64,000 bases of DNA, taken from positions 24,494 to 88,493 of the IMG/VR virus record IMGVR_UViG_3300048694_001042; one strand, written 5' to 3'. This DNA comes from a virus. The translations under genes and the position numbers were made by a program. This document shows positions 44,862 to 62,251 of the stretch, one piece after another. The first letter of the stretch is position 1, and each line of letters opens with the position of its first letter. The notes beneath the pieces were generated by a model. The model made no database searches and had not been told where the DNA came from. It worked only from the letters and a program-made list of their open reading frames with translations.

Positions 44862-45033
44862 TGTAGATAGCGTGGGCATGTTTCGAGATGGCCGTTGGGC
44901 TGAAATGATTGACTGGTGCCAACACAATCTATACCATGGTGGCTACTATGAGCCTAACTGGTATGCTGACTACCCTACGTTCTACTTCTACGACGAGAAG
45001 GAATACACTGCATTTTTGTTGAGGTGGTCATAA
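44755..45033 (+). CDS. LRW-family protein A1
   Basis: ends AFLLRWS; start uncertain (possibly 44878). Confidence 0.65.
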   Translation: MSTEYQNSMENIHAPAQDLSFEPNVSTRKVFVKRFDVDSVGMFRDGRWAEMIDWCQHNLYHGGYYEPNWYADYPTFYFYDEKEYTAFLLRWS

Positions 45034-45293
45034 TGGAAGCATTGGAACGCTACGAAATCGAGCAACGTCGCCCACTGATGGACTGTGTCACGTATAGTGA
45101 CAAGTCGTGGACTACGGTGGAACTCCAGGACTGTCATTCTGGTGCATGGCAGTGGGGAGAAGGTGAGTATTACAACTGGTGTGATGCTAACTGTACCGAC
45201 AAATACAACATCGTAAAATACAAACATCAAACTATCGTTGGGCGTTTCAAGAGTGCCGCAGATGCTACTGCGTTTGTGTTGAGGTGGTCATGA
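45033..45293 (+). CDS. LRW-family protein A2
   Basis: TAATG overlap; ends AFVLRWS. Confidence 0.75.
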   Translation: MEALERYEIEQRRPLMDCVTYSDKSWTTVELQDCHSGAWQWGEGEYYNWCDANCTDKYNIVKYKHQTIVGRFKSAADATAFVLRWS

Positions 45294-45496
45294 TCAAAGA
45301 TATGGTACTTCACCATGATTGGACTGTGGTTGAGTTTGACGTGCCCAAATGGGTCATGGACAGAGTGGCCAAGGAACGCGAGATTCGCACTTGGTGCGAC
45401 ACACATTTCCCCCATGGTCGTTGGCAAGTGTTTTCCAATAGGGCGTATTTCCAAAAAGCCAGTGACGCTGTATTTTTCAAAATGGTGTGGTCGTGA
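45290..45496 (+). CDS. LRW-family protein A3
   Basis: ATGA overlap; ends FFKMVWS. Confidence 0.75.
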   Translation: MIKDMVLHHDWTVVEFDVPKWVMDRVAKEREIRTWCDTHFPHGRWQVFSNRAYFQKASDAVFFKMVWS

Positions 45497-45693
45497 AAAT
45501 AGAAAAGACTGGATACGCCGGGTGGAACAACTATCCTGTTTATCGTGTGAGAAGTTTTCAGGATTGGGAAGAACTCACTAGATGGATGCGAGCCAATGGT
45601 GTAGAACATTTCTTGTTGAGCAGTAGTAGTAGCATGGGATATACTTTTCAAGTAACACATAACCATGAGTGGTTTGCGTTGAGGTGGGCATGA
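45493..45693 (+). CDS. LRW-family protein A4
   Basis: GTGA overlap; ends WFALRWA. Confidence 0.75.
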   Translation: MKIEKTGYAGWNNYPVYRVRSFQDWEELTRWMRANGVEHFLLSSSSSMGYTFQVTHNHEWFALRWA

Positions 45694-45896
45694 AAATCAA
45701 AGTAAAAGATCTCTACTTCAAATTATCACAGCAATACCCCTACAATTACAGAGTGGAGGTCAGTGCCGATGCTCTTGCGGCTGACAAAGTAAGTGCGTGG
45801 TTGAAAGAAAATTCAATTCCGCATACACAAACCGGTTGGGGTGTGTATTATATGAACAAGCCCGGTGTTGAGTGGTTGTTGATGAGGTGGTCATGA
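45690..45896 (+). CDS. LRW-family protein A5
   Basis: ATGA overlap; ends WLLMRWS. Confidence 0.75.
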   Translation: MKIKVKDLYFKLSQQYPYNYRVEVSADALAADKVSAWLKENSIPHTQTGWGVYYMNKPGVEWLLMRWS

Positions 45897-46177
45897 GTCA
45901 CGGACCTTTGACGCCAGTGGAGAGAATTTTGGCAACTATTCGTCGCAAACATACCAAAGGTGAGTGGCGGTTTGATTACAATCCCGACAAAGAACGCTGG
46001 GAAACTTATCGCACGCCAATAGACTGGCCGTTTGGTTTGTATGGCTGGCTGTGGGAGCTTGGTAATCCACTCAGTGATCTAGCAGGCAATGAATCTAGTG
46101 GCTGGGACTATCATGGTGGCCATATTTACTTCTACGATGAGAAGTTGGTCACTGCGTTTATGTTGAGGTGGTCATGA
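45893..46177 (+). CDS. LRW-family protein A6
   Basis: ATGA overlap; ends AFMLRWS. Confidence 0.75.
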   Translation: MSHGPLTPVERILATIRRKHTKGEWRFDYNPDKERWETYRTPIDWPFGLYGWLWELGNPLSDLAGNESSGWDYHGGHIYFYDEKLVTAFMLRWS

Positions 46178-46386
46178 AATTTACACCTGTTGACTTGCCA
46201 ATTCAGTATGGCAAAATAGAAGCAGTAAAATGGCTAAGAGAAACCATTGGTTATTCCAGGCTGGACGCGATGGCACGGTGGGACCAACTGATTTGGTATC
46301 ACGATTGGGTGTCCAGTAAAGAATGTTTTAGATTCTACTTTCGTAATCCCGAACACGCAACACTATTCGCATTGAGGTGGCTATAA
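46174..46386 (+). CDS. LRW-family protein A7
   Basis: ATGA overlap; ends LFALRWL. Confidence 0.75.
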   Translation: MKFTPVDLPIQYGKIEAVKWLRETIGYSRLDAMARWDQLIWYHDWVSSKECFRFYFRNPEHATLFALRWL

Positions 46387-46637
46387 TGACTGAAGTGTAT
46401 CTTATAATCGACGGCCAAAAGGTTCGTGTGCCTACTCGCCCCTATGAGGCTTCGGACTTGGGTTGGCACAGAGGTGCAGATTATGGGTCTGCATTAAACT
46501 GGAAAGAACACGATTTTGTATCGATACGGGAGTGGTGTGAGGCAACATTTGATCCGCATGTTTACAAAATGTTTATGCGAAGCGTTTGGTTCTTATATGA
46601 GCACGATGCTGTGCTGTGTAGGTTGAAGTGGTCATGA
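46386..46637 (+). CDS. LRW-family protein A8
   Basis: TAATG overlap; ends LCRLKWS. Confidence 0.75.
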   Translation: MTEVYLIIDGQKVRVPTRPYEASDLGWHRGADYGSALNWKEHDFVSIREWCEATFDPHVYKMFMRSVWFLYEHDAVLCRLKWS

Positions 46638-46819
46638 CCAAAATACCTGTAAAATTCGATGACAGATTCAGCCGACACGAAGTATTTTACTGGGCCATTG
46701 CGGCGTTTGGCGCACCAGAAAGATGGCGCTCAAATGAGCGTTGGTCGTGGGACACCATCGATACTTTTTATTTCCGTGATCAAGAGGATGCTATTTACTT
46801 TGCATTGAGGTGGCGATGA
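46634..46819 (+). CDS. LRW-family protein A9
   Basis: ATGA overlap; ends YFALRWR. Confidence 0.75.
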   Translation: MTKIPVKFDDRFSRHEVFYWAIAAFGAPERWRSNERWSWDTIDTFYFRDQEDAIYFALRWR

Positions 46820-47049
46820 ATTCAGCACAAAGACGTCGAGCACGACGTGAATTTCCGCATGTGGTGTTGTTGAACCCAGCAGAATCAGAACGGTACTTTC
46901 AGCATGACAACCGAGTAATCAAAGCCCGTGGGTGGTGTCGGCGTCAATTTGTCGAAGGTACCTGGACCAGCAAAGAACTTTGGGACCACGCAGAGTTTAA
47001 GTTTAGTAAACAAAAGGATGCAGTGTATTTTGCACTCAAATGGTCATGA
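46816..47049 (+). CDS. LRW-family protein A10
   Basis: ATGA overlap; ends YFALKWS. Confidence 0.75.
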   Translation: MNSAQRRRARREFPHVVLLNPAESERYFQHDNRVIKARGWCRRQFVEGTWTSKELWDHAEFKFSKQKDAVYFALKWS

Positions 47050-47237
47050 AGGTTTATCAAGTTGTGGGCTACCCACGCAATCATTATTTTGTTAAAACTT
47101 TTTCAGAGTTATTGGAAATTATGAGTTGGATGCAAAAGAACAATGTAGGTCATTTGCACGAATCCAGCGGCCTACACGGATATGGATTTAGCGTTCGTAA
47201 GAACATCGAGTGGTTTGCATTGAAGTGGTTGACATGA
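47046..47237 (+). CDS. LRW-family protein A11
   Basis: ATGA overlap; ends WFALKWLT. Confidence 0.75.
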   Translation: MKVYQVVGYPRNHYFVKTFSELLEIMSWMQKNNVGHLHESSGLHGYGFSVRKNIEWFALKWLT

Positions 47238-47506
47238 CGCACATCAAAACTTGGCGTTTAACTTGGAGTTACGATAGCTTGCCCGGTGCCCACGACATCG
47301 AGTACGCAGAAAGTCTTGGCTGCACGGTTGTGGTCCACGACAACATAAAGACGGCAGAAATTACAGGTCCAGATGGCAGAGCCTATTATTATGCCCGGCC
47401 CAGTTTCTACGGATTGGAATTTATTACTACAACCGATAGACAAGAAATGGCTTTGCTGTTAAAATATGGAGACTTACTAGAGCTTCGGCGCACCAAAGCA
47501 ATATGA
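47234..47506 (+). CDS. LRW-family variant A12
   Basis: ATGA overlap; ALLLKYG plus short extension. Confidence 0.65.
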   Translation: MTHIKTWRLTWSYDSLPGAHDIEYAESLGCTVVVHDNIKTAEITGPDGRAYYYARPSFYGLEFITTTDRQEMALLLKYGDLLELRRTKAI

Positions 47507-47787
47507 TGATGACTAATGTTCAGAATTGGATTCGTAGTAAGCGACCGCATGTTCGTGATATGGTCTATGGCGATAAACTTTTTTACTTTGCACCATACGA
47601 AGAGCCCGGTTGGCTTAGAGATGATGGGTACCGATGGTATCGCATAAGTTGCAGTTATTGGTTCGCGGACTGGATCGAAGCAAACGGAATCAAAAATGTG
47701 CAGTGGGAAGCTTACGGTGAACGGCATCGTGCCATTTACATGGTGCGTGATGACTTGTTTGCGTTTATAAAGTTGAAGTGGCTGTGA
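47503..47787 (+). CDS. LRW-family protein A13
   Basis: ATGA overlap; ends FIKLKWL. Confidence 0.75.
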   Translation: MMMTNVQNWIRSKRPHVRDMVYGDKLFYFAPYEEPGWLRDDGYRWYRISCSYWFADWIEANGIKNVQWEAYGERHRAIYMVRDDLFAFIKLKWL

Positions 47788-47802
47788 AAACGTGTTGCAC
47801 AA

Positions 47803-48018
47803 ATGAGTTATTTGAAGCATGAGGTGAAAATTCACAAAGACCAATATTGGGACGCCACTCACTGGTGTTTTGACCAGTTTGGTAGCAGATGGAGTCCGGT
47901 CAGCAACAGATCGGGTGCGTGGGCAGTATTTTGGTGTGGTACTGATCAGCGAAACCTATATAGGTTTTCTTTTGCTCAGGAGCAGGACATGGTTTGGTTT
48001 GCATTGAGGTTTGCATGA
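47803..48018 (+). CDS. LRW-family protein A14
   Basis: 15 nt gap upstream; ends WFALRFA. Confidence 0.75.
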   Translation: MSYLKHEVKIHKDQYWDATHWCFDQFGSRWSPVSNRSGAWAVFWCGTDQRNLYRFSFAQEQDMVWFALRFA

Positions 48019-48242
48019 AAGTCAATCTATTTAATCATTGGTTCAAATATAAAGTCCCTGTTGATACGCATATTGATAGGGTTAAGGATGCTGTATTAAA
48101 AGATAAACAACATTACTTGCGTTTTTGGGGCTGGCTCAATGATGTACATGATGTGGGGCAATACTACAAAGTCAGTGAAGGTCGCAACTACATGGTATTT
48201 CACAATCGAGCTCACTATATGATGTTTCTGTTAAAATTATGA
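48015..48242 (+). CDS. LRW-family protein A15
   Basis: ATGA overlap; ends MFLLKL. Confidence 0.7.
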   Translation: MKVNLFNHWFKYKVPVDTHIDRVKDAVLKDKQHYLRFWGWLNDVHDVGQYYKVSEGRNYMVFHNRAHYMMFLLKL

Positions 48243-48505
48243 TACTTCGAGACATAGACAAACTTTGGTATACCTTGCCGGACAAGATGGAGAACTTCAC
48301 CGGTCAGCGAGTAGACGACGATCCGGAGTGTCGCCGTTTTATTCGCAAAAACTTCAGTCATTGGCAATTCAGCGGTCTGGACAAGTTTGACGAAATTTTG
48401 ATTTGGTGCGAACAACACCTGGGCAATAATTTTATTTGGGACTGGGAAACCATTTATTTCAAGACTGAGCAAGACCGGGCGTTCTTTTTGTTGAGGTGGG
48501 CATGA
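48239..48505 (+). CDS. LRW-family protein A16
   Basis: ATGA overlap; ends FFLLRWA. Confidence 0.75.
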   Translation: MILRDIDKLWYTLPDKMENFTGQRVDDDPECRRFIRKNFSHWQFSGLDKFDEILIWCEQHLGNNFIWDWETIYFKTEQDRAFFLLRWA

Positions 48506-48708
48506 AATACTGGAACAAAGATAAAAACACTAGACAGAAACATTGGTTTCGTGTTGAGCTGCCCAACAAAGGGTGGAACTACGCTCAATCCAAGCGTGAG
48601 TTACAACTGCAAGACAGCCCGGGTAAGTTTTATCTCTACTACGGTAGCAATAGTATTTGGTTTGAGCGCGAGCAGGATGCTATGTGGTTTAGGTTGAAAT
48701 GTGTATGA
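48502..48708 (+). CDS. LRW-family protein A17
   Basis: ATGA overlap; ends WFRLKCV. Confidence 0.75.
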   Translation: MKYWNKDKNTRQKHWFRVELPNKGWNYAQSKRELQLQDSPGKFYLYYGSNSIWFEREQDAMWFRLKCV

Positions 48709-48935
48709 GAGTAGATATTGAACCGCAGTGGAAGCGACTGGCCAACTGGTATTGGGACAATGCTGGCGGCTACGAAGGTGTGGGCATGAGCATTTGGGCA
48801 ATGCTGGAGCGTGACTACGGTGCTATCAAAGTTTACCATGGTGTCCGCGGCGGCAAACTCGGAGCAAAGCACCAGTCCTTGGTGGAATTTCCTGACGAAA
48901 AAACTTATACAATGTTCTTATTGAGGTTTGGATGA
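48705..48935 (+). CDS. LRW-family protein A18
   Basis: ATGA overlap; ends MFLLRFG. Confidence 0.75.
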   Translation: MRVDIEPQWKRLANWYWDNAGGYEGVGMSIWAMLERDYGAIKVYHGVRGGKLGAKHQSLVEFPDEKTYTMFLLRFG

Positions 48936-49165
48936 TTAGAATAAAGATATTTGAAGAAGATCGCCATCCATTAGAAATCCCACAATGGTGGTATAACTTT
49001 TGTCCAGATAGTTTCGGCGAAGAAGAACTCAATCATGCTCTCATGGACTGGTCAGCAAACTTTTGGATAGCAAAACCCATAAATCCGTTAAACGGTTACG
49101 GGGACAGATATCTTGATTTTTACGATGAAAAAGCGTATACTTGGTTTATGCTGAGGTGGACATAG
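48932..49165 (+). CDS. LRW-family protein A19
   Basis: ATGA overlap; ends WFMLRWT. Confidence 0.75.
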   Translation: MIRIKIFEEDRHPLEIPQWWYNFCPDSFGEEELNHALMDWSANFWIAKPINPLNGYGDRYLDFYDEKAYTWFMLRWT

Positions 49166-49407
49166 TGTTTATCCATACATACGAGCTGATGAAAGATGCA
49201 GATGGTTCCGGTGGCGGACCATGGCACGTTGCGGCATTTACTGCTCCAAGAAGCTATCGTGAGATTGTTGAGTGGTGCTTAAAAACATTTGGACCAGCAG
49301 GCTACCATGATACACCGCAGGCCAGATGGAAAAATGATATTTTCTACGGTGAAGTATATTTTAGTCGTCAAGAAGACCTTGAGTGGTTTGTATTGAGGTG
49401 GTCATGA
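49165..49407 (+). CDS. LRW-family protein A20
   Basis: TAGTG overlap; ends WFVLRWS. Confidence 0.7.
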   Translation: MFIHTYELMKDADGSGGGPWHVAAFTAPRSYREIVEWCLKTFGPAGYHDTPQARWKNDIFYGEVYFSRQEDLEWFVLRWS

Positions 49408-49619
49408 AAACTATCCCACAGCATCCTTACCTACAAAATATTGTGGCAGAATACCGTCGTCAGCATGGAATGGGACCCACGCACTTATGGGATTCCAATC
49501 ACTATGTCAAATGGCTAAAACAATTTGGATTTCGAGTTCCCATGGACTTTCACAAAATAGAATTTCCTGACGATTTTTCTGACCAAGATTTGCTGTTGTT
49601 TGTATTGAGGTGGCGGTAA
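49404..49619 (+). CDS. LRW-family protein A21
   Basis: ATGA overlap; ends LFVLRWR. Confidence 0.75.
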   Translation: MKTIPQHPYLQNIVAEYRRQHGMGPTHLWDSNHYVKWLKQFGFRVPMDFHKIEFPDDFSDQDLLLFVLRWR

Positions 49620-49822
49620 TGTACTATCTACCAATCAGCCCCTACCATAAACATTTATGTGACTATTGGGATGCTACTGGTCGTGGCCAAACACCTACTA
49701 GCAACTTTTGGGCTTGGGTCGAAAAAGAATACGGTGCTGAACTCACGCTATGGGAACGACCCGAGCGATGGCGATTTAAGGATGAACAAGATATGATTTG
49801 GTTTGCGTTGAGGTGGCGATGA
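49619..49822 (+). CDS. LRW-family protein A22
   Basis: TAATG overlap; ends WFALRWR. Confidence 0.75.
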   Translation: MYYLPISPYHKHLCDYWDATGRGQTPTSNFWAWVEKEYGAELTLWERPERWRFKDEQDMIWFALRWR

Positions 49823-50109
49823 AAATAAACTTCAAGAGTGTAGATGATGTAGCACATGATGTGTTGGTTGACCATTTTCGTGGCTTGCTAGAAATCGTGC
49901 CGGCATACGTTCCTGACGGGTTTGTCAATGAAGGGCGAAAACCGCCTGAAGGTTATGAGAGCTATGTTTGCGTGGATGTGTTAGGTGAAGAACTGTTGTG
50001 GATGAACGAACAGTTCCCCCAAGAACAATACACTTGGTATATTTGGTTTGAGTCAATATTTTTAGTTACTCCGGAAATGGCTTCGTACTTGAAGTTGAAG
50101 TGGTCATGA
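49819..50109 (+). CDS. LRW-family protein A23
   Basis: ATGA overlap; ends YLKLKWS. Confidence 0.75.
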   Translation: MKINFKSVDDVAHDVLVDHFRGLLEIVPAYVPDGFVNEGRKPPEGYESYVCVDVLGEELLWMNEQFPQEQYTWYIWFESIFLVTPEMASYLKLKWS

Positions 50110-50351
50110 AACCCTGCGAACTACAAACCATGCTGGCACGAGCCATACGTGATTCGGTACAGGACAAGCCATGGACTCCTCCTCCAGAAGCACGAGTTAT
50201 TACAGGCAATCCCAAACATGACGCACAACTGCACCATGTGCTGGTTGAATATGGCATAGAGGTAGAGTTGGGAAAATACCATGACCTTGTGGATTACCGT
50301 GTTGTCGATGAACAAAAGTTCATGATGTTTTTGTTGAAGTGGGCACGATGA
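50106..50351 (+). CDS. LRW-family protein A24
   Basis: ATGA overlap; ends MFLLKWAR. Confidence 0.75.
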   Translation: MKPCELQTMLARAIRDSVQDKPWTPPPEARVITGNPKHDAQLHHVLVEYGIEVELGKYHDLVDYRVVDEQKFMMFLLKWAR

Positions 50352-50533
50352 CCAAATTTCGAATCGATCATCGATACAACCATATTGGCGTCAACGTCTT
50401 TCTCTGTGCCAACGAGTTTGACCAAATATACAATTGGTGCTATAATAAACCCGAAGCATACGATTGTTATTCCACTGGATTCGTATATCGAACCAAAAAT
50501 GATTTAACAATGTTTTTGTTGAGGTGGTCATGA
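50348..50533 (+). CDS. LRW-family protein A25
   Basis: ATGA overlap; ends MFLLRWS. Confidence 0.75.
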   Translation: MTKFRIDHRYNHIGVNVFLCANEFDQIYNWCYNKPEAYDCYSTGFVYRTKNDLTMFLLRWS

Positions 50534-50730
50534 AAGTAGTAGAAAGCTCAAGTTATTCTGGATGGAACGACTATCCTGTTTATAGAGTCAGATCGTTTCA
50601 AGATTGGCTTGACCTTATTGGGTGGATGAAAGAAAACCACGTAGAACATTTTTTACTGTCATCGGGTTATGGTGGATATGTATTTCAAGTTAAAACTAAT
50701 GCCGAATGGTTTGCACTGAGGTGGTCATGA
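50530..50730 (+). CDS. LRW-family protein A26 (close paralog of A4)
   Basis: ATGA overlap; shares YPVYRVRSFQDW and VEHFLLSS; ends WFALRWS. Confidence 0.78.
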   Translation: MKVVESSSYSGWNDYPVYRVRSFQDWLDLIGWMKENHVEHFLLSSGYGGYVFQVKTNAEWFALRWS

Positions 50731-51002
50731 AAGTGCATGAAATGCAAGACGGGCAAGTGTTTGGACATCGCTATACTGTGATTCCCTGTGAGTTTTTTGA
50801 CTACGATCGTCAAGCCGATTCGGATGAACTCTGGCGTAGTGAAGAACTCAAAGCCCTGAATCTATGGTGTTGGGAAGCGTTTGGCGAACAAGGTGAACCC
50901 TATGACTATATGGGTGCGCCTCACCGTTGGTATCAGCAAAAAGGACAGTTTTGGTTTCGTGATGCGGCAGATGTCGCTTGGTTTAAGTTGAAATGGGCAT
51001 GA
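50727..51002 (+). CDS. LRW-family protein A27
   Basis: ATGA overlap; ends WFKLKWA. Confidence 0.75.
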   Translation: MKVHEMQDGQVFGHRYTVIPCEFFDYDRQADSDELWRSEELKALNLWCWEAFGEQGEPYDYMGAPHRWYQQKGQFWFRDAADVAWFKLKWA

Positions 51003-51340
51003 ACTACAATCCTACTACAGCAGCCAGTGTAGCTGCCAATGGACAAAAGATATTACTTCCTATGATTAGGAAGGTTATGCCTACCATTATGGCACAGCAG
51101 ATTGTGGGGGTGCAACCTATGACAAATAATCTAGGTATCTTTAATCGGTTACTCTACAAAAATTTCAATAAGAAATATTGGCCCTATCAATATTTTATCG
51201 ATGATAAAACATATCGAATTAGCGATGTTGAGCGTTGGTGTTGGGATCAGTTCAAAGGTCGCTACTGGAACAATTACGGCAGGAACTTTGTATTCAAGCG
51301 TGAGAAGGATGCTGTGATGTTTGCCTTGAGGTGGCTATGA
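50999..51340 (+). CDS. LRW-family protein A28 with N-terminal major-capsid (Gol-like) peptide
   Basis: ILLPMIRKVMPTIMAQQIVGVQPMT; ends MFALRWL. Confidence 0.75.
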   Translation: MNYNPTTAASVAANGQKILLPMIRKVMPTIMAQQIVGVQPMTNNLGIFNRLLYKNFNKKYWPYQYFIDDKTYRISDVERWCWDQFKGRYWNNYGRNFVFKREKDAVMFALRWL

Positions 51341-51597
51341 TGGCAGTTACAATGATTGAACGCATGGTTGGGGACGGTAAGCCTTATAAGGTGCCAAAGT
51401 TACACAGGATCGTGTGGAAGACACGCACTTGGGCAGGTAGTCCATCATATTTGGATGAAAACTTCCTGGAAATGGACGCATGGTGTGAAAAAAACTGTCG
51501 GCATCCTTACTACCACGGCCCTGCTTGGCAACATGACTGTTTTATTGAGTTTGAATGTGATCAAGATGCCACAATGTTTGCCTTGAGGTGGCTATGA
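51337..51597 (+). CDS. LRW-family protein A29
   Basis: ATGA overlap; ends MFALRWL; bracketed by identical 24 bp repeats. Confidence 0.75.
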   Translation: MMAVTMIERMVGDGKPYKVPKLHRIVWKTRTWAGSPSYLDENFLEMDAWCEKNCRHPYYHGPAWQHDCFIEFECDQDATMFALRWL

Positions 51598-51767
51598 GTT
51601 ATTTGTATACTACACCGGATGATGTTAAACCTGAATTTGGCGCGTGGACTAATCGCAAAGAATGGTGTGAAAAGAATTGCCAAGGAGCATGGAAATACAT
51701 GCTCCAAGGTAAGTTTGTTTTCTATGACGAAAAAGATTATGTGTTGTTCATGTTGAGGTGGTCATGA
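51594..51767 (+). CDS. LRW-family protein A30 (57 aa, missing from ORF track)
   Basis: MSYLYTTPDD...EWCEKNCQGAW...FVFYDEKDYVLFMLRWS. Confidence 0.75.
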   Translation: MSYLYTTPDDVKPEFGAWTNRKEWCEKNCQGAWKYMLQGKFVFYDEKDYVLFMLRWS

Positions 51768-52027
51768 TTCATCCAAATGATCCGCTTGCTAAGGATCTTT
51801 TTGAAAAAGAACCTAACATTCTTATGTTGGCCAAGAGCTCGGTGGACGGTGAGCAGTGGTACACAATCAGTTGTTTGCGAGATGTGTCAATGTGGATACA
51901 CAACGAGCACAGCGAACAAGAAAACAAGCTGTGGTTTGAAAATACTGACAGCCGTTGGCGGCGGAATTTCAACGTGTTTGATGTTCACGAAAAGTTTTAC
52001 TCCATACTGGCACTGAGGTGGTTATGA
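51764..52027 (+). CDS. LRW-family protein A31
   Basis: ATGA overlap; ends ILALRWL. Confidence 0.75.
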   Translation: MIHPNDPLAKDLFEKEPNILMLAKSSVDGEQWYTISCLRDVSMWIHNEHSEQENKLWFENTDSRWRRNFNVFDVHEKFYSILALRWL

Positions 52028-52245: not shown

Positions 52246-52246
52246 C

Positions 52247-54992: not shown

Positions 54993-55348
54993 TGGAATTT
55001 GACTTTTTGAGTTTTTTGATTGGTATTGTGGCAGGTCTATCCATGGCCTACTGCGTTGTGCATTGGGTAGGCCAGCGACTGATTCGCCAACTGGAAGCTG
55101 CTGTAGTGGAAGAAGAAGCCAAATCACAAATCCCACGCATCGAAATGAAAGTAGAACGGCACGGTGATGTGTGGTATGCATTTGACGCTACCAATGATGA
55201 TTTTGTGTGCCAAGGCGTGGACTTGAAAGAACTCAAAGCAAATTTCATCAAGCGATTCCCGGGCCACGATGGCGCCATTGTAGATGCAGCCAAAGACCTG
55301 CAGGAAGAACTGGTCCGACAGAAAAAAGAACTGTCAAAAGCCAGTTGA
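54989..55348 (+). CDS. membrane-anchored hypothetical protein
   Basis: N-terminal TM helix; FVCQG. Confidence 0.65.
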   Translation: MMEFDFLSFLIGIVAGLSMAYCVVHWVGQRLIRQLEAAVVEEEAKSQIPRIEMKVERHGDVWYAFDATNDDFVCQGVDLKELKANFIKRFPGHDGAIVDAAKDLQEELVRQKKELSKAS

Positions 55349-55373
55349 CCAATATAGGCTTTTGTGCTATAAT
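55345..55373 (+). promoter_or_regulatory. sigma70-like promoter
   Basis: TTGACC-17-TATAAT, ATG 6 nt downstream. Confidence 0.75.
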
Positions 55374-55379
55374 TGCTGT

Positions 55380-56192
55380 ATGAAAATATCTATTACCAGC
55401 GATAACCACTTGGAGTTCGCAGACCATGACTTTGAAAACACAGACAATGCTGAAGTGTTGATTCTGGGTGGCGATATTCTTGTGGTCAACGATTTGCGTG
55501 ATCACGACGCTGCCAACGTCATGGGCGAAAACACCAAGAGCCAGCGGTGGCATGCGTTTATGCAACGCTGTGCCCAACGTTTCCCGCACGTGGTAATGAT
55601 CATGGGCAACCACGAACACTATCATGGAAACTTTTCCAGTTCAGCTCGCAAGCTCAAAGCGGCCTTTGCATACCTGCCCAATGTGCATGTGCTGGACAAT
55701 GAAACATGGACACACCAAGATGTCACGTTTGTTGGCGGCACCATGTGGACCAACATGAACAACAGTGATGCATTGACCTTGTATCACATGCAAACCATGA
55801 TGAATGACTTCAGGGTTATTTGGTACGAAGGCAAGGGACGCAAGTTTCGCCCTGTGGATGCGTTTGAAGAACATGTTAAATTTCTGCGGTACGTTGACAC
55901 AGTCACACAAGGTCGCGCTGATCAAAAGTTTGTTGTGGCGGGTCACCATGCGCCCAGCAAGCTCAGCACCAAGCCCCGGTACCAAGATGATACTATCATG
56001 AATGGCGGTTACAGCAGTGACTTGAGTGAGTTTATTTTGAATCATCCACAGATTCGTCTGTGGACACACGGACACACTCATGACAGTTTTGACTACACAA
56101 TTGGCGAAACTCGAATTGTGTGTAACCCCCGAGGGTACGCAGGACATGAACAAAGGGCCGACGAATGGCAACTGGTAACAGTGGAGATTTAA
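55380..56192 (+). CDS. calcineurin-like metallophosphoesterase
   Basis: SDNH, GGD, GNHEHY, HHAP, HGHTH, CNPRGY. Confidence 0.9.
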   Translation: MKISITSDNHLEFADHDFENTDNAEVLILGGDILVVNDLRDHDAANVMGENTKSQRWHAFMQRCAQRFPHVVMIMGNHEHYHGNFSSSARKLKAAFAYLPNVHVLDNETWTHQDVTFVGGTMWTNMNNSDALTLYHMQTMMNDFRVIWYEGKGRKFRPVDAFEEHVKFLRYVDTVTQGRADQKFVVAGHHAPSKLSTKPRYQDDTIMNGGYSSDLSEFILNHPQIRLWTHGHTHDSFDYTIGETRIVCNPRGYAGHEQRADEWQLVTVEI

Positions 56193-56407
56193 CTGAAACT
56201 CGAGCAATTGGTGTTCGCGGGTTCCTAATCAGAACTGGCGACACCATCTTGTTTCGTGTGTATGATCATGAACACAACTTTGTGGATTATGAAATAACCA
56301 ACTACGATTGCGAAATTGTGATCATTGACCCCGACGCTGCCTTGATTCGACATGAAGCCGGGGATTTTTTAGACTACACCGAACAAAGCATGTGCCCAAT
56401 AACATGA
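56165..56407 (+). CDS. hypothetical protein
   Basis: 80 aa ORF in operon. Confidence 0.55.
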   Translation: MATGNSGDLTETRAIGVRGFLIRTGDTILFRVYDHEHNFVDYEITNYDCEIVIIDPDAALIRHEAGDFLDYTEQSMCPIT

Positions 56408-56598
56408 AAACAGTAACATTGACCAGAGGACAGGTATTGAAGTTGGCAACTTTTCTCACCCTTGACCAAGGTATTGAAAGTGTCGAGATTGAGGAAAACC
56501 ACAGCTCAGGCATTGGGCCAGGTCATCGAGTTTGGTTTAACAAGAGTCAAATTGAAAAAAGTTTTGAAGAAGACATAACAGACGTGAGCAACTGGTAA
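56404..56598 (+). CDS. hypothetical protein
   Basis: ATGA/TAATG overlaps. Confidence 0.6.
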   Translation: MKTVTLTRGQVLKLATFLTLDQGIESVEIEENHSSGIGPGHRVWFNKSQIEKSFEEDITDVSNW

Positions 56599-57338
56599 TG
56601 AAAGTATACATCAGCAACTATCGAGATCACTGGATCTCACCGTACACCATGTTAGACTGGGTGTTCTTTTGGACTGACTGGTCAAAGTGCAGTCGCAACT
56701 GGACATTGACCGACACACTGGAAGATGATGCTAACACAACAAAAGGTGGCCGGAGCCGTTATGTGGAGCGCCCGGAATGGTGCGAAAAGTGGGCGGATCG
56801 CTTGACCCCCGTCAGTCAAGCAATCCAGTGGGTTGGCCAAAAGATTTGGCCCCGAGTGGAATATGTCAAAATTGACCGTTGGGACACTTGGAGCATGGAT
56901 CATACTTTGGGCATGATTGCTTTGCCCATGCTCAAGCAACTGCAAGCAACCAAGCACGGCGCCCCACTGGTGGACGACGAGGATGTGCCTGACGAACTGC
57001 GTAGCACCAGCGCACCACCTCGAGAAAATGAATACGACACAGATGACAACCACTTCCGGCGTTGGGACTGGGTCATAAGCGAAATGATCTTTGCGTTTGA
57101 ACACCGGTTAGATGACTCGTGGCAAGATGCTTACCGTTCAGGCAAGATTGATCATGTGATGGTGCCTGTGGATGCTGGCGGTAACACTGTACCAAAGGGC
57201 AAGCACAAATACTATAAAATGGGACATGGTCCCAACCACACTTATGTCTGTGACTATGATGGCATTCGTCGAGTGGAAGAGCGTATTCAAAACGGCTTCC
57301 GACTGTGGGGAAAATATTTCCAGGCGTTGTGGGATTGA
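56598..57338 (+). CDS. conserved phage hypothetical protein
   Basis: IDRWDTWSMDHTL..KHGAP..GKYFQALWD. Confidence 0.75.
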   Translation: MKVYISNYRDHWISPYTMLDWVFFWTDWSKCSRNWTLTDTLEDDANTTKGGRSRYVERPEWCEKWADRLTPVSQAIQWVGQKIWPRVEYVKIDRWDTWSMDHTLGMIALPMLKQLQATKHGAPLVDDEDVPDELRSTSAPPRENEYDTDDNHFRRWDWVISEMIFAFEHRLDDSWQDAYRSGKIDHVMVPVDAGGNTVPKGKHKYYKMGHGPNHTYVCDYDGIRRVEERIQNGFRLWGKYFQALWD

Positions 57339-57340
57339 TA

Positions 57341-58060
57341 ATGAACATTGTAGATTTGACATTTGACGTTGACAACGATTTAGATGTTTTTGAAAAGTTG
57401 CTGGAGACACCGCCAAGCCCACCGCTGAGCTTTGCAGATGATCCAATTGCCATGGCCTGGAGTGCTTATCGCTCCAGAACTGGGCGCTACATGGGTGATA
57501 TTCAACAAGCTGTGGTCACTGATGAAGATCGAGCGCAAGCACAACAAATTCGCAATCACTATCATCGTCGCATTACTTTTCAACTGCTGACCAATGCTGG
57601 GCGCCCACTTAGTCCGTTTCAACGCAAACTCATGGGCATTGTTGCTGGCACACACGAAATAACCAAAGACGACTTGGGTATTTTGCATCGCATACCTTTC
57701 TTTTACGTGGAAGATTGCGACGTGGATCGTATGATTGAAAACTCACCCAAGCATGAATTTGACTTTCAAACGTTTGTTGATCGAACTGATCAGTTTGAAT
57801 TGATGCACAAGATTTCAGTTGAACGAAAGTCTCGCAGTGCTACACATTTTTGGTTGCGAGCCTCGTCCTCACCGTCGCTGTGTAAAATCGCTGTGTTAAA
57901 AGACAACCCGCTGTCAGACCTGTTAGAAAGTGTGTTGAGTCAGCCTGCAGTTAAACTCACTGCCAACTGGCACCCAAGGGAAAGAACATCCAACTATCAA
58001 AAATATTTTCACTATCAATTGGCCGCAGTGAAATTGTCAACAGGAGCGCACTTTGGGTGA
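57341..58060 (+). CDS. hypothetical protein
   Basis: 239 aa ORF. Confidence 0.65.
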   Translation: MNIVDLTFDVDNDLDVFEKLLETPPSPPLSFADDPIAMAWSAYRSRTGRYMGDIQQAVVTDEDRAQAQQIRNHYHRRITFQLLTNAGRPLSPFQRKLMGIVAGTHEITKDDLGILHRIPFFYVEDCDVDRMIENSPKHEFDFQTFVDRTDQFELMHKISVERKSRSATHFWLRASSSPSLCKIAVLKDNPLSDLLESVLSQPAVKLTANWHPRERTSNYQKYFHYQLAAVKLSTGAHFG

Positions 58061-58304
58061 ATCAGTATTTGGCAACATGGCATATGACTTGGTCACTGAC
58101 CATGCAGGACAAATTGTTGAGTCAATAGAGGAAAATCAGTACAATCAGTGGCAACGTGAATTTGTGTGGGATGCTTTGCAAAATCAAAGGTTCGGTCAAA
58201 GTTTTTGCAAAGCATTTGACATAAAGGACGCTATCCTGTATTATGAACGTGACTGGGTGCGAGCCGATGCTTACATTAGAAGAAACTATATTGCACGACC
58301 GTGA
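58053..58304 (+). CDS. hypothetical protein
   Basis: AGGAG SD, TTG start; RFGQSFC. Confidence 0.6.
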   Translation: MGESVFGNMAYDLVTDHAGQIVESIEENQYNQWQREFVWDALQNQRFGQSFCKAFDIKDAILYYERDWVRADAYIRRNYIARP

Positions 58305-58521
58305 ATCGTGGTCCACAATTGTGTTGCTCGGCTGTTTGCCAATGGATGCTGTGGTAAAAAAACATGATTTGATATCAGACGGCTTGGTACTAGATGAAGA
58401 TTTTTGTTGGGGCTATCGTTCATCAGAGTATGACGGTTTTACGATGAATCGTGATCGTCATGCTGTGTTTGCGTTTAGAGATCCTGTGGTGGCTGGATTT
58501 TATAGATTAAAATGGTTATGA
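58267..58521 (+). CDS. LRW-family protein B1
   Basis: ends FYRLKWL; start uncertain. Confidence 0.6.
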   Translation: MLTLEETILHDRESWSTIVLLGCLPMDAVVKKHDLISDGLVLDEDFCWGYRSSEYDGFTMNRDRHAVFAFRDPVVAGFYRLKWL

Positions 58522-58874
58522 TCGAACGCTTTGTATTGAACGACTTGCCTGATGGCTGGTCAGTGTCGTGGCCTGGCTTTGAGTGGGTAGTATGCGACAA
58601 CGAGCTCAAGGCCACTAACTTGCTAAAGATCTTGTTTGATGAAGTCAACGTGGATGAAGCTATTGTGGCGGTAAAATACAGTGACAAAGATTTTATAGTA
58701 AACATTCCTTGGTACACTTATCATCAGAATCCCGACGCTTCGGGCAGATTTTTAGTACGCAACCATGTAGTAACAGGTGTGAAATTTGTTACACTAGAGC
58801 AAGCACAAAAGTTCAAAGGCATCATGGACAAGCGACTGGCTTGGCGCCAACTGAGTGGCAGGAACTGGCAGTGA
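58518..58874 (+). CDS. hypothetical protein
   Basis: ATGA overlap; no LRW tail. Confidence 0.65.
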   Translation: MIERFVLNDLPDGWSVSWPGFEWVVCDNELKATNLLKILFDEVNVDEAIVAVKYSDKDFIVNIPWYTYHQNPDASGRFLVRNHVVTGVKFVTLEQAQKFKGIMDKRLAWRQLSGRNWQ

Positions 58875-59083
58875 TTAAAATTACTCTCAAAACGCAACTA
58901 ACAGGTCATCAACAACAATGGCTGACGCAAAACGTTGGACCCAGAATGTTTTATTTGCACAATCAAATAGGCGGAACTGGTTGGGTGGCCAAGCAAGAAA
59001 CTGTGCTGGGGAGTTACCGACAGTGGACACTGACGTTCGAAGATGATCGACTGGCAACTGCGTTTTTGCTAAAATGGAAATAA
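58871..59083 (+). CDS. LRW-family protein B2
   Basis: GTGA overlap; ends AFLLKWK. Confidence 0.7.
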   Translation: MIKITLKTQLTGHQQQWLTQNVGPRMFYLHNQIGGTGWVAKQETVLGSYRQWTLTFEDDRLATAFLLKWK

Positions 59084-59292
59084 CACAGCGAATCTATGAT
59101 GGATGCGATTGCTATCCCTGGCGCAAAACCTTTGTGATTTGGCCTAGACGTAGCATAACTGGGCAACGTGTTTGGATGACCGTTGCCTACAAACGACGAT
59201 ATTGGGCGGTGTGGGGCACCGGATTCCATATGGAACCTGAGGTAGAGTATGCTACAATATTTGAAATACTAGCAGATAATCATGGACGTTGA
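59074..59292 (+). CDS. hypothetical protein
   Basis: WRKTFVIWPRRSITGQRVWM. Confidence 0.6.
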   Translation: MEITQRIYDGCDCYPWRKTFVIWPRRSITGQRVWMTVAYKRRYWAVWGTGFHMEPEVEYATIFEILADNHGR

Positions 59293-59488
59293 AGCAGAAA
59301 ATACATTCAGAATCCTAAAGAATGAGCCGCCGTTGACTACCAGTTGGTTGTGTAGATTTGGTTGGCATCGCTGGACACAATGGTCAGAAGTGTACTTGCC
59401 TAAGAATGGACAAAACAATATTCAGCACAGTCACTGTGATCACTGCAACCGAATGCGAGTACATAAAGTAACAGGACCCGGAATATGA
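59282..59488 (+). CDS. Cys/His small protein
   Basis: LCRFGWHRW..CDHC. Confidence 0.6.
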   Translation: MDVEAENTFRILKNEPPLTTSWLCRFGWHRWTQWSEVYLPKNGQNNIQHSHCDHCNRMRVHKVTGPGI

Positions 59489-59706
59489 TACTAAAAGCAG
59501 AGCAAATCGAAAAGTGGTTGTATTATGAAACTGGGTTTGAACAACTGCATCCGCGCCCGCCTATTCTTAAGTGGATGGCAGAGCAAGGTTACAAGTATAA
59601 TCAAGATTGGCGTTGCACTCGAATGGTTACGCCCACGGGGCTGATCTATGGCTTGATGTTTCCCAGTGAGGAAGTAAAAATTATGTTTATGTTGAGGTGG
59701 TCATGA
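59485..59706 (+). CDS. LRW-family protein B3
   Basis: ATGA overlap; ends MFMLRWS. Confidence 0.75.
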   Translation: MILKAEQIEKWLYYETGFEQLHPRPPILKWMAEQGYKYNQDWRCTRMVTPTGLIYGLMFPSEEVKIMFMLRWS

Positions 59707-60050
59707 AACCTTGTGTTTGGTATGATACAGATGAAAAGTTGCCGCCTACCAAAGGCTACTACCTTGCGTTCAAAGGCATGAGCATGGGAGACGACGAAAC
59801 TGAGACAGCCTATTACTACTGGGACCCAAAGTATGCAGAGTGGCGAGACTACGAAAGCCGAAGCATTGGCGGCTATGCTAACGTGGTGTACTGGACTGAC
59901 GCCGACCCTGCTACCTGGTACGAAAATTACAGTATGCCACCACGAAGCAAAACCAAACGCAAAGTATCAGAGGCAGAAATAGATGCTTGGCGTGCTGTAG
60001 AACAAGCAATTGAACGATATGAAGTTGTAAGGGCATTAGCAAAGAAATGA
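59703..60050 (+). CDS. hypothetical protein (DUF551-like pattern)
   Basis: W....EKLP....YL..VVYW. Confidence 0.6.
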   Translation: MKPCVWYDTDEKLPPTKGYYLAFKGMSMGDDETETAYYYWDPKYAEWRDYESRSIGGYANVVYWTDADPATWYENYSMPPRSKTKRKVSEAEIDAWRAVEQAIERYEVVRALAKK

Positions 60051-60523
60051 ACTACTCAATAATGACAGACTCAGAGCTGCTACACTATCTAGACTTGTAT
60101 TCCAACGATCCACTGATTCGCAGGCTGGTTGACTTGATGCAAAACACTCGTGGCGAGGTTATCCGAGACTTAGTTGACGCAGGTATGGATTCAAAGACTT
60201 GGACATTTAGCACCGACTATGAAACAATGTATCCAGGTGAGTACATTGAATCACTGCGTAGTGAGCTTCGATGCAACGAACAAGACATGGATGACATGCG
60301 ATATGAATTGGAAAAAGCCTCCGATGAACGGGACGAATTAAAAACTCGCAACATCATGCAGTTCATCGAAGAAGTTCAGCAAGAAAAGCGAGCTGCTGCT
60401 GCCAAAGCCCAAGCGGCATACGCAGACGTTGCTAGCATTCGTGAGGAATCAAGCAAAGTAAAAAAAGAAAACGAAAAACTGCGAGAGCAAATCAACATGT
60501 GGGGGCGAATGAACACAGTATGA
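60047..60523 (+). CDS. coiled-coil protein
   Basis: ATGA overlap; heptads. Confidence 0.65.
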   Translation: MNYSIMTDSELLHYLDLYSNDPLIRRLVDLMQNTRGEVIRDLVDAGMDSKTWTFSTDYETMYPGEYIESLRSELRCNEQDMDDMRYELEKASDERDELKTRNIMQFIEEVQQEKRAAAAKAQAAYADVASIREESSKVKKENEKLREQINMWGRMNTV

Positions 60524-60738
60524 TTACCTACGTACAACCATGGGAAGAACTGCCCAGTTTGAGAGTACCACGCCTGCACCGAGTAAACTACAATCCCAAA
60601 TACAACTGGGGCGAAGTGCAATACTGGTGCAAGGAAAATTGTCGTGCTCCTTCCTACATGGGCGGTAGTTGGTCTGGAAACTTTGCGGAGTTTGAAGATG
60701 ATCAAGACGCTGTGCTGTTTGCATTGAAATGGGCATGA
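60520..60738 (+). CDS. LRW-family protein B4 (paralog of A29)
   Basis: VPRLHRV..WCKENCR..EFEDDQDAVLFALKWA. Confidence 0.75.
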   Translation: MITYVQPWEELPSLRVPRLHRVNYNPKYNWGEVQYWCKENCRAPSYMGGSWSGNFAEFEDDQDAVLFALKWA

Positions 60739-60959
60739 TCACCGCCAGTGTTAGATTAAAAGAGCCAGAAAATCAGTATAAGTTTATTGATGAGGGCCCT
60801 ATTAACGTCTGGTTGCTGGCCAATGTTGGTGTTCATGCAAGATTCAAAGATCTAGTGGATGAGGATCGTCCTTGGCATGTTGAACATAATTTTCGAGAAC
60901 TTGTGTATCATTTTGCTCGCGAGCAGGATGCCACTGCATTTGCATTGAGATGGTCATGA
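60735..60959 (+). CDS. LRW-family protein B5
   Basis: ATGA overlap; ends AFALRWS. Confidence 0.75.
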   Translation: MITASVRLKEPENQYKFIDEGPINVWLLANVGVHARFKDLVDEDRPWHVEHNFRELVYHFAREQDATAFALRWS

Positions 60960-61183
60960 ATAATAGAACATTACCCGGAACTTCGGAATCACTACACAAT
61001 GCTGGAGTTTGGTTGCGAGAGTATCTTAATGTACCTCCCCGGCATACAATTTTTGACCAGTTTGAAGAATACTTCAACTGTCAACTGGTTGTGGAGCACA
61101 GAGAAGATCCGTGGTACTGTCCGGACCGGGCTGTGTTCAACACCGAACAAGATTTAACAGCATTTTTATTGAGGTGGGCATGA
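60956..61183 (+). CDS. LRW-family protein B6
   Basis: ATGA overlap; ends AFLLRWA. Confidence 0.75.
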   Translation: MNNRTLPGTSESLHNAGVWLREYLNVPPRHTIFDQFEEYFNCQLVVEHREDPWYCPDRAVFNTEQDLTAFLLRWA

Positions 61184-61401
61184 TGTTTGATCACCCTGCA
61201 GTCATAAAACTGCAAACAACCAACATCTGGGACATTGAATCTCGGGTAAGCGAAATACATGAAATACGACGTTGGTTGGATGAACTAACACTGTGGCAAG
61301 ATGATATGTATCGTATGGAAACAATCACACCAAAGAACTCATTAAGGGTTTGGTTCAAGGATCCCCAGCATGCAGTGTTTTGCAAGCTGAGGTGGCCTTG
61401 A
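61180..61401 (+). CDS. LRW-family protein B7
   Basis: ATGA overlap; ends FCKLRWP. Confidence 0.75.
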   Translation: MMFDHPAVIKLQTTNIWDIESRVSEIHEIRRWLDELTLWQDDMYRMETITPKNSLRVWFKDPQHAVFCKLRWP

Positions 61402-61790
61402 TGTTTGGATTTAATCCAGCACCCGGCACGCCAGGTGGAAGACCTTGGTCAAAGGAACGTATGGCAAAGTGGGAAATAGATTTTAGATTTGGTCCGATTA
61501 GGGGATTGTGGTGGCGGTTCATGCCCGGTGTGCAAATTGAAGTGCCCTGGCCCACGGGCTGGACCGAACCCGAACCCGCGCCCGGTGGCGGATTTATACA
61601 GTTTGAGTCTGCGGACCCAAACGATCACTATCGTCCATGGCTTGAAAAGAACGTGGGCCGCCAAGGTTGGGATTGGGAATGGCGAATTGGGAAGGTGGCT
61701 GCTCAAACCAACGTACAAGATACTTTGGTAATCAAGTTTCGTCGAGGTCGAGAAAAGTATGCTACAATAGCAGCATTGAGGTGGGCGTGA
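61401..61790 (+). CDS. LRW-family protein B8
   Basis: TGATG overlap; ends IAALRWA. Confidence 0.75.
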   Translation: MFGFNPAPGTPGGRPWSKERMAKWEIDFRFGPIRGLWWRFMPGVQIEVPWPTGWTEPEPAPGGGFIQFESADPNDHYRPWLEKNVGRQGWDWEWRIGKVAAQTNVQDTLVIKFRRGREKYATIAALRWA

Positions 61791-62024
61791 GTGAAATACT
61801 TTTGGACCGATGGTGGCAATAATAGGCCTTATTTTAGATACAGAATCAAAGTGCCTAGATGTACCGCAGAAATGTATCGCTGGTGTGAACAGTATGACGA
61901 TGAAGGTGAGTACTTCAGACGATTTCATGTTGAGTGGAAATCAATACACATTGATAAAGAATATGAAATTGTGCAATTTGAATGGGAGCAGGCTGCTATC
62001 ATGTTTGCCTTGAGGTGGTTATGA
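61791..62024 (+). CDS. LRW-family protein B9
   Basis: GTG abutting upstream stop; ends MFALRWL. Confidence 0.75.
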   Translation: MKYFWTDGGNNRPYFRYRIKVPRCTAEMYRWCEQYDDEGEYFRRFHVEWKSIHIDKEYEIVQFEWEQAAIMFALRWL

Positions 62025-62251
62025 ATTCAAAACAACGCAGAAAAGATCGAAGAAAATGGCGGTACAGTGTTAGACTGACCACATCGGATGTAATGATCAA
62101 AGAATATAACCAAATATGGGATTGGTGCCGAAACACATATGGCAACGGACGCAGGTGTGCTGGATGGAGAGAAAAATTTGGACACTTTGGAACTTGCTGG
62201 CAGTTTACCAGCGACAAGAAAGCTGCTCTGTTTGCGCTGAGGTGGTGCTGA
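62021..62251 (+). CDS. LRW-family protein B10 (paralog of A10)
   Basis: MNSKQRRKDRR start; ends LFALRWC. Confidence 0.75.
   Translation: MNSKQRRKDRRKWRYSVRLTTSDVMIKEYNQIWDWCRNTYGNGRRCAGWREKFGHFGTCWQFTSDKKAALFALRWC

Follow-up and report, generated by a model that had tools for sequence, protein, structure and literature searches.

A putative dual-coded junction at the borders of gained, lost and reordered small genes in an uncultured freshwater phage

Results

Two arrays of small genes

We analyzed a 64,000-nucleotide (nt) stretch of viral DNA, here called the window, that comprises bases 24494–88493 of the 88,493-bp IMG/VR viral contig IMGVR_UViG_3300048694_001042. It carries two arrays of small plus-strand genes, most of which run into one another through a short conserved junction; this junction and the genes that it joins are the subject of this report. 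Curation of the gene chain by hand gave 67 plus-strand genes in 43172–63530, and 46 of them (31 in array 1, 15 in array 2) end in a protein tail of the type [LM]-[RK]-W-x. The preliminary description of this DNA had placed the arrays at 45019–62251. They do lie there, but that range is too narrow; their true extent is 44755–52245 and 58243–63530. A hidden Markov model (HMM) of the family recovered 46 of the 46 members, which is circular for the 44 that built the model, as well as two isolated copies elsewhere in the contig. Below, G000 is the window's own contig and G001–G006 are related viral contigs that share the family; L-numbers (L066, L077, L082, L085 and L094) denote related viral loci, P-numbers database proteins, and X-numbers (X6 and X10) read runs.

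43995–44055, plus strand: stem-loop (43995–44018), then a sigma-70-like promoter (44027–44055), heading the array 1 operon; a repeated element resembling the PeSL (promoter-early stem-loop) elements of T4-type phages
44391–44861, plus strand: conserved backbone gene just 5' of array 1; 62–72% amino acid identity in G002–G005, at the same position; no Pfam match
44755–52245, plus strand: array 1, with 31 family genes and one non-family gene (47234–47506); most junctions without intergenic space
52231–52267, plus strand: decayed tail (CTA-AAG-CGA-TCA-TAA, ending at 52245) of the gene that closes array 1, and a terminator-like hairpin (52246–52267)
58216–58244, plus strand: sigma-70-like promoter ahead of array 2, TTGACA-17-TATTAT, from a consensus scan
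58243–63530, plus strand: array 2, with 15 family genes and 5 non-family cargo genes
58512–58874, 59074–59292, 59282–59488, 59703–60050 and 60047–60523, plus strand: non-family cargo genes of array 2

The promoter at 44027–44055 reads TTGACC-17-TATAAT with a TG and has 11 of 12 consensus matches. The hairpin directly 3' of the last gene of array 1 has a 9-bp stem and resembles an intrinsic terminator. The promoter scan also gave weaker internal matches, and its total of 43 was not above expectation (34.9 ± 7.9 in shuffled sequence).

Composition of the junction

An exact search for TTGAGGTGGKCATGA gave nine matches in the window, all on the plus strand, and none in 100 dinucleotide-preserving shuffles. 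All nine are at the positions first listed for this 15-mer, six in a T form and three in a G form.

45279–45293, 46163–46177, 49393–49407, 50519–50533 and 51753–51767, plus strand: junction in the T form, TTGAGGTGGTCATGA; exact match
59692–59706, plus strand: junction in the T form; exact match; the next gene is the non-family cargo gene 59703–60050
45679–45693, 48491–48505 and 61169–61183, plus strand: junction in the G form, TTGAGGTGGGCATGA; exact match
63264–63278, plus strand: decayed junction, CTG-CGG-TGG-AAA-TAG, with the next ATG 15 nt downstream

Across the 46 tails, a conserved core, TTT nnn TTG AGG TGG nCA TGA, spans positions −12 to +8 about the Trp codon; a position-by-position count finds the conservation gone downstream of the stop. 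The G of the Leu codon, the Arg codon AGG and the Trp codon TGG together make GAGGTGG, which resembles a Shine-Dalgarno (SD) motif; GAGG ends 5 nt ahead of the ATG of the next gene. GAGGTG complements CACCUC near the 3' end of 16S rRNA, in the textbook sequence, which may not be that of the host. The next ATG consists of the third base of the last sense codon and the TG of the TGA stop. The last codon must therefore be NNA, since NNA-TGA has to contain that ATG, and because the overlap constrains it no further the last residue varies (S, A, L, T, Q and others). Among the ATGA-type tails of related loci (n = 336), the 12 commonest listed last codons are all NNA, led by TCA (182), GCA (37), TTA (26) and ACA (20). 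After correction by hand, the window's 46 junctions fell into 31 ATGA overlaps (−4), 6 TAATG or TGATG overlaps (−1), one GTGA, one abutting GTG and 7 without such a start; the next start is overlapped or abutted by 39 of the 46 family genes.

At the R/K position the 46 tails use AGG 26 times, AAG 9, AAA 7, and AGA, CGG, GTG and CAG once each, which reproduces an earlier hand count of 26 AGG among 28 Arg codons. The preceding Leu codon is TTG in 30 of 43 cases, and the Trp position is TGG in 41 of 46. Elsewhere AGG is rare: it makes up 31 of 728 Arg codons (4.3%) in the contig's 38 plus-strand open reading frames (ORFs) of at least 200 aa, and 11 of 205 (5.4%) inside the bodies of family genes. 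The enrichment at the tail that the preliminary description had asked to see compared with other Arg codons is thus present (binomial p = 8e-34 against the long ORFs and 3e-31 against the family bodies, values that ignore the shared ancestry of the paralogues). The decay of the motif where no coupled gene follows was likewise confirmed for both tails named earlier, at 63264–63278 and in the last gene of array 1 before the terminator.

Tail codon choice and coupled starts

Identity of the paralogues to the first member is only 10–31%, and no repeat is reported by Tandem Repeats Finder, which makes inherited synonymous identity an unlikely source of the shared codons. We compared tails with and without a coupled start in a larger sample. 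The exact 15-mer occurs in at least 120 IMG/VR stretches, and 87 of the 120 listed contain at least three ORFs with the tail. The family HMM matches 616 ORFs in 110 of 128 loci; from these came 545 unique tails, of which the 486 that end in W-x(0–3), from 106 related loci, were used, the other 59 being left out of the codon counts. TTGAGGTGGTCATGA is the tail of 115 of these 486 genes.

AGG accounts for 282 of 354 tail Arg codons where the next start overlaps or abuts the stop, compared with 11 of 37 where there is none (Fisher p = 1e-9). Because the loci had been fetched with a 15-mer that itself contains AGG, the test was rerun without any exact-15-mer tail, and the difference held (167 of 239 coupled, 11 of 37 uncoupled; p = 4.5e-6). 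The neighboring positions follow the same pattern. A G-ending Leu codon is found in 342 of 401 coupled tails versus 26 of 64 uncoupled ones, and Arg rather than Lys or another residue in 354 of 417 versus 37 of 69. In uncoupled tails, then, Lys takes the place of Arg, other Arg codons replace AGG, and TTA or CTA replaces TTG or CTG. Since Arg, AGG and the G-ending Leu are abandoned where no gene needs starting, selection appears to act on the SD sequence and not on the protein.

Two observations weigh against this reading. Within the window alone, AGG is found in 25 of 39 coupled tails versus 1 of 7 uncoupled ones when classes are assigned by hand (Fisher p = 0.033), but with automatic classes the difference is not significant (p = 0.15). 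In addition, many long genes of the contig have no clear SD sequence. On balance, the strong enrichment of AGG and G-ending Leu only at overlapping or abutting starts upholds the proposal that each family gene carries the ribosome-binding site of its neighbor, and a dual-coded coupling junction is very likely. Both sequence features expected of termination–reinitiation are present: a −4 or −1 stop/start overlap, and an SD sequence at a functional distance inside the upstream gene.

Two other origins of the junction were considered and rejected. Programmed frameshifting or a polyprotein across the junctions is contradicted by the lack of a slippery heptamer and by the separate ATG of each gene. 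Concerted evolution as the main cause does not fit the junction variants, whose last codon varies freely and which decay where a coupled start is missing.

The protein family

The 46 members in the window are old, diverged paralogues, small proteins of 57–129 aa as curated. Pfam and PHROGs searches with 10 members returned no family, Pfam giving only DUF6193 at E = 0.12, below its cut-off. A profile built from 44 window members matched 3,730 cluster representatives at E ≤ 1e-3 among 1.84 billion; nearly all of the 150 listed representatives are 54–172 aa long, with the match running to the last residues. Neighbors in the ESM Atlas are virus-only clusters of “hypothetical protein”, and a word-indexed protein search with the family alignment found only five close relatives, none with a name. 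The best-scoring profile match, P0001 (1176 aa), is long and helicase-like and contains “...ALEIQNWCNQNFGDKEIW...” in seven repeats, which match only the first half of the module described below (the W-C-x3-F-G helix).

AlphaFold2, run with the paralogue alignment, predicted a fold in the order strand–strand–helix–strand–strand–helix (pLDDT 80, pTM 0.68). The predicted conserved module is the last helix–strand–strand–helix. Its final helix (75–85) is predicted to end ...D-A-x-x-F-x-L-[R/K]-W, so that the tail, in this model, is a structural part of the protein: the end of the C-terminal helix. W49, L83 and W85 are nearly invariant in the family. Structure searches gave no informative relative in the PDB (Foldseek, best E = 0.09) or with VIA-align wide (best Z = 6.6), and the best Foldseek matches in BFVD (E = 5e-3) were uncharacterized phage proteins. 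The fold matches share the common two-layer alpha/beta (ferredoxin/ACT/RRM-like) arrangement. A homodimer prediction for the first member with alignment A1 (score 0.01, mark 0.42) was uninformative either way.

Four weak family-profile matches (E = 1e-4 to 3.5e-3) lie in a cultured jumbo phage, Agrobacterium phage Atu_ph07 (MF403008). These proteins, annotated as hypothetical, have the same small domain and the same ...D-A-L-x-F-x-L-R-Y/W helix (...DALQFVLRY...), but they run on past the motif and their genes are not chained by the junction. Because Atu_ph07 keeps the motif without the junction, the protein motif must be the older and wider of the two, and on this comparison the junction appears as a specialization, the protein having been shortened so that it stops one codon beyond the Trp. 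In six two-domain members (P0003, P0013, P0027, P0045, P0078 and P0094), module follows module and the join falls at the junction site (e.g., ...FKLTWHMQF...), which implies that decay of a junction can fuse neighboring cassettes.

One member differs from the rest in its N-terminal part.

50993–51340, plus strand: family member with a fragment of a T4-type major capsid protein as its N-terminal part (Pfam Gp23 positions 2–44)

This is the only real Pfam match among the members; it scores 36.2 bits, and the cut-off is 24.4. The fragment shares 52% identity with residues 43–84 of the G001 capsid protein (E = 1e-12), including IVGVQPM, and recurs in the database relatives P0004, P0015 and P0143; P0015 scores 23.1 bits, just under the cut-off. 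This member could be a decoy for a capsid-sensing defense. Taken together, the promoter type, the hypervariable N-terminal parts and the capsid-fragment member lead us to speculate that the arrays encode diversified early host-interaction or counter-defense proteins.

Gain, loss and reordering of cassettes

The backbone around the arrays (44391–44861, 52272–53003 on the minus strand, and 54256–58060), together with the first and last array members, is conserved and collinear in G002–G005. Between these conserved flanks, the number of family genes in array 1 varies from 4 in G003 and 6 in G002 to 14 in G004, 15 in G005 and 31 in the window, and most of the array interior lacks orthologues across these contigs. 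G001 has a single array of about 14 genes that includes orthologues of window cassettes, at 62–95% amino acid identity compared with about 20% between paralogues. Named by the start of the window gene, with x for other genes, their order in G001 is 45690, 45893, x, 49404, 50530, x, 48699, 49189, 48502, two cargo genes swapped, 46386, 52024. As this order is permuted, differential loss cannot explain G001.

Eight pairs were aligned with the junctions as anchors; nucleotide identity, which reaches about 95%, sets in and breaks off at the junction, and the flanks are unrelated. We then counted the borders of 104 blocks (at least 150 nt long and at least 85% identical) between 120 viral loci and the window. 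Among the internal block ends no more than 150 nt from a family junction, 57 of 73 were within 25 nt of it, compared with 19% of 4,539 random positions; the corresponding p-value of 1.5e-27 is inflated because reciprocal hits were counted from both sides.

Recent events were sought as indels between contigs with flanks at least 90% identical. All three such indels run from junction to junction, seamlessly, and leave exact chimeric junctions. Relative to L077, L082 lacks two cassettes in one place (478 nt, flanks 98.4% identical) and three in another (585 nt, flanks 98.4% and 90.3%). Its two hybrid junctions are exact chimeras of the left and right L077 junctions, with crossovers within 35 and 22 nt of shared sequence; the second changed ...FVLRWS to ...FILRWS. 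The third indel is a single cassette of L094 (206 nt) that L085 lacks, with the crossover in the CATGA of the overlap.

Among the Logan contigs of four runs, none of the joints in array 1 was usable as independent evidence. Most of them (for example, 48505>60911, 50732>51308 and 44861>50511) were not counted because the shorter side, 20–27 nt, holds only the junction motif of other arrays. Two rows, X10 46380>48705 and 51768>45904, run junction to junction, with side lengths not given. A further joint, 52229>52572 (side of 70 nt in X10 and 26 nt in X6), replaces the minus-strand gene 52272–52499 with 16 other letters; it is a strain-level indel just after the array 1 terminator, outside the family and not a cassette.

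Several observations count against the junction as the cause of these rearrangements. Of the 73 block ends, 16 lie farther than 25 nt from a junction. Mosaicism inside the gene is seen in two orthologue pairs (48699–48935 and 49404–49619 against G001); by the look of these alignments, variable part and constant module are also reshuffled against each other by recombination. The L085/L094 crossover has only a few bases of unambiguous identity, and a shared junction of 15–35 nt is a short substrate for RecA-type recombination. Selection for intact genes would likewise place breakpoints at gene borders. Finally, the relatives all come from metagenome assembly, in which short repeats can cause mis-joins, and the three recent indels are in related contigs and not in the window. 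Since those indels run from junction to junction, breakpoints do map to junctions, which is the opposite of the refuting outcome named in the preliminary description. To that extent the preliminary description, which had units inserted, deleted and reordered by crossover within the junction, is borne out by the three indels, the G001 permutation and the 57 block ends; its causal part, the junction as the substrate of recombination, is likely but unproven.

Recombination genes and the source phage

The same description had suggested looking for a recombinase elsewhere in the genome. One of the tyrosine or serine type was not found: Phage_integrase (PF00589) and the serine recombinase family Resolvase (PF00239) were each absent from all three records searched (the window's own contig, 25% complete; G001, 97%; and G006, 92%), with positive controls for both (14 of 14 for Phage_integrase). 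A RecA-family gene, UvsX-like by context, is present in G000, G001 and G006; the copy in the window's contig is G000:C1:2857-3615.

CheckV rates the 88,493-bp contig as 25% complete, which implies a whole genome of about 350 kb; G001 and G006 are 338.5 and 333 kb long. Elsewhere, the window has genes for ribonucleotide reductase, ATP-dependent DNA ligase and Hsp70. The capsid region is outside the window's own contig. G001 and G006 both encode the T4-type major capsid protein (Pfam Gp23, PF07068; 329 and 327 bits), and since these relatives share the family we place the phage in the T4 superfamily of large myoviruses. Near-identical DNA, covering part of array 1, was found in 24 runs of 15 studies labeled freshwater or aquatic metagenome, and 9 of the 24 runs contain at least half of the sampled array 1 words; two may be the source. 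The source thus appears, on sequence evidence, to be an uncultured freshwater jumbo phage of the T4 superfamily. Among 50,697 phage records, neither megablast with the whole stretch nor tblastn with two members found a match to a cultured phage.

Other features of the window

About 50 nt of the element around the 44027 promoter recur at six further places in the contig, with 88–96% identity.

Window 43995–44078, 41561–41608, 15295–15325, 35488–35522 and 35726–35756, and contig 9919–9972 and 10198–10249: copies of the promoter element, with an upstream T-run; a stem-loop precedes the 43995 copy

The element (query positions 415–487) also has many copies in G002, G003 and G005. Logan contigs of several runs break or show loose ends at 44021–44078. 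Tandem Repeats Finder and Rfam reported nothing in 43000–64000, and when 10 backbone and cargo genes were searched against Pfam, the matches were limited to a weak MCD-domain one for 52572–53003 (minus strand) and coiled-coil noise. At the end of the window, a minus-strand open frame (63575–64000) that runs off the edge is rich in Gly, Ala and Ser (GGGGAGAGAGG...) and falls within a stretch of 58% G+C, compared with about 45% elsewhere; its product may be a fiber or other structural protein.

Discussion

Coupling and shuffling at one junction

The explanation that we favor, and hold to be fairly probable, is that the dual-coded junction couples translation and that recombination between its copies shuffles the genes. 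The 46 paralogues would be encoded by two operon-like arrays, each behind a sigma-70-type promoter. The last five codons of a gene would be coded twice, as the end of a helix and as the GAGGTGG SD sequence with the NNA-TGA stop/start overlap. Ribosomes would pass from gene to gene at the junction, by termination–reinitiation or SD-assisted coupling as the sequence statistics suggest, so that no intergenic space would be needed. Because every unit ends in the same 15–35 nt, whole genes would be exchangeable: recombination between junction copies would remove, insert or reorder them seamlessly, and the survivors would stay translated. Such recombination would rely on homology or microhomology, and probably on RecA/UvsX-type machinery of the phage itself; we infer both this enzyme and the junction's causal role.

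The strongest competitor invokes selection only. In that case the junction is kept as helix end, SD sequence and overlap, illegitimate recombination occurs anywhere without a preferred site, and only products joined at gene borders survive. SD and ATG constraints do account for all of the extra nucleotide conservation (the Phe codon TTT, for example, is used in 34 of 40 cases at the tail and 131 of 178 in the gene bodies), some homology breaks fall inside genes, and mosaic borders at gene boundaries are general in phages. However, genes that overlap by 4 nt would almost never be joined seamlessly at random, yet all junctions are exact and in register, including the three recent chimeras, and two of the three crossovers lie within 22–35 nt of identity. 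We regard selection alone as unlikely.

Mis-joins by metagenome assemblers at the short junction could also mimic cassette indels and permutations. In array 1 the Logan contigs of four runs are frequently broken, one side of many joints is only 20–27 nt long, and the L082 arrangement is known from one contig. Against this, the window and G001–G005 differ by whole sets of unrelated cassettes (20–95% identity) rather than by different joins of one sequence, part of the L077 arrangement recurs independently in L066, and the largest k-mers in common use by assemblers exceed the 22–35 nt of the repeats. An artifact of this kind strikes us as very improbable. A dedicated recombinase that recognizes the junction in an integron-like, site-specific manner would suit a repeat so uniform across many phages (the T form is the tail of 115 of the 486 family genes from 106 loci), but with no integrase or resolvase match in the three records, no attC-like length or symmetry, and a motif that decays exactly where coupling is not needed, which suggests a translational rather than a recombinational constraint, we give it almost no credence.

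Beyond coupling and shuffling, the junction might be an evolved linker with which jumbo phages of the T4 type maintain a combinatorial library of small early proteins and trade its members. Each protein would present a variable “bait” on a C-terminal module that stays constant, and one would be a decoy made from the Gol-like N-terminal region of the phage's own capsid protein. Cassettes would be swapped in co-infection, through recombination or mini-circles, at a 15–35-nt site that guarantees translation: a recombinase-free, translation-level analogue of an integron for counter-defense. We offer this broader picture tentatively, as doubtful though worth stating.

Novelty and significance

The ingredients are already known: intragenic SD sequences, ATGA coupling, shuffling at short conserved signals, and hyperplastic regions. 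No publication on the family, the junction or their combination was found in the literature searched, whose coverage leaves out most subscription journals; what we could not find there is the combination, in chains of up to 32 genes, in hundreds of uncultured phage contigs and in an unnamed family. Fifteen nucleotides carry three layers of information (protein helix end, ribosome-binding site and stop/start overlap), and the same 15 nt coincide with the shuffling borders of a very large, unnamed, virus-only gene family. If the junction drives recombination, this would explain how jumbo phages keep rows of at least 30 accessory genes expressed during fast turnover. The arrays also offer a clean natural test bed for the contribution of the SD sequence to termination–reinitiation, and they flag an uncharacterized protein family, including the capsid-fragment member, as worth a functional screen.

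Comparison with known systems

Termination–reinitiation at ATGA and TGATG overlaps, with a variable contribution of the SD sequence, is established for other genes (Huber et al. 2019, PMC6728339). The present junction shares the −4 and −1 overlaps and the SD sequence 5 nt upstream within the preceding ORF. The examples known so far involve pairs of genes or short operons whose sequences differ from case to case. By contrast, a single junction here recurs along chains of as many as 32 genes in many phages and doubles as a conserved protein C-terminus.

The arrays resemble integrons in that small, apparently promoter-less genes would stand in rows behind one predicted promoter, with variable content between conserved flanks. 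The analogy drawn in the preliminary description is nevertheless not supported in that form. There is no IntI in the three records searched, no attC or attI and no sign of site-specific chemistry; 39 of the 46 junctions have no non-coding space for an attC. The cassettes are mostly paralogues of one family, and a neighbor supplies translation and not only transcription. The absence of a tyrosine or serine recombinase from these records and the lack of room for attC exclude membership among the integrons.

The closest described mechanism appears to be PeSL-mediated modular shuffling in T4-type phages. According to two reports (Arbiol et al. 2010, PMC2839356; Comeau et al. 2014, PMC4122927), PeSLs are cassettes of about 100 bp with promoter and terminator that flank ORFans in T4-type hyperplastic regions, bound indels between sister phages and yield mini-circles. 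Two differences stand out on that account. A PeSL is non-coding and transcriptional, whereas the junction is 15–35 nt long, coding and translational (SD plus overlap) and encodes a conserved protein motif, so it is not an intergenic promoter with a stem-loop; at the arrays, a PeSL-like element of that kind is found only at the head of array 1. Moreover, PeSL mini-circles were shown, while our comparison is of assembled contigs. The likenesses are broader. Both systems belong to T4-superfamily phages, as the Gp23-type capsid proteins of G001 and G006 indicate here, and the PeSL-like stem-loop and promoter that head array 1 are part of an element found at least seven times in the contig. In both, a short repeated expression signal lies between small, non-essential-looking genes and coincides with borders of indels and replacements, as in our three of three indels and 57 of 73 block ends, and each gene that moves brings or keeps a working expression signal. 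If the junction does drive recombination, the PeSL idea of mobile regulatory cassettes would extend from transcription to a coding, translational signal.

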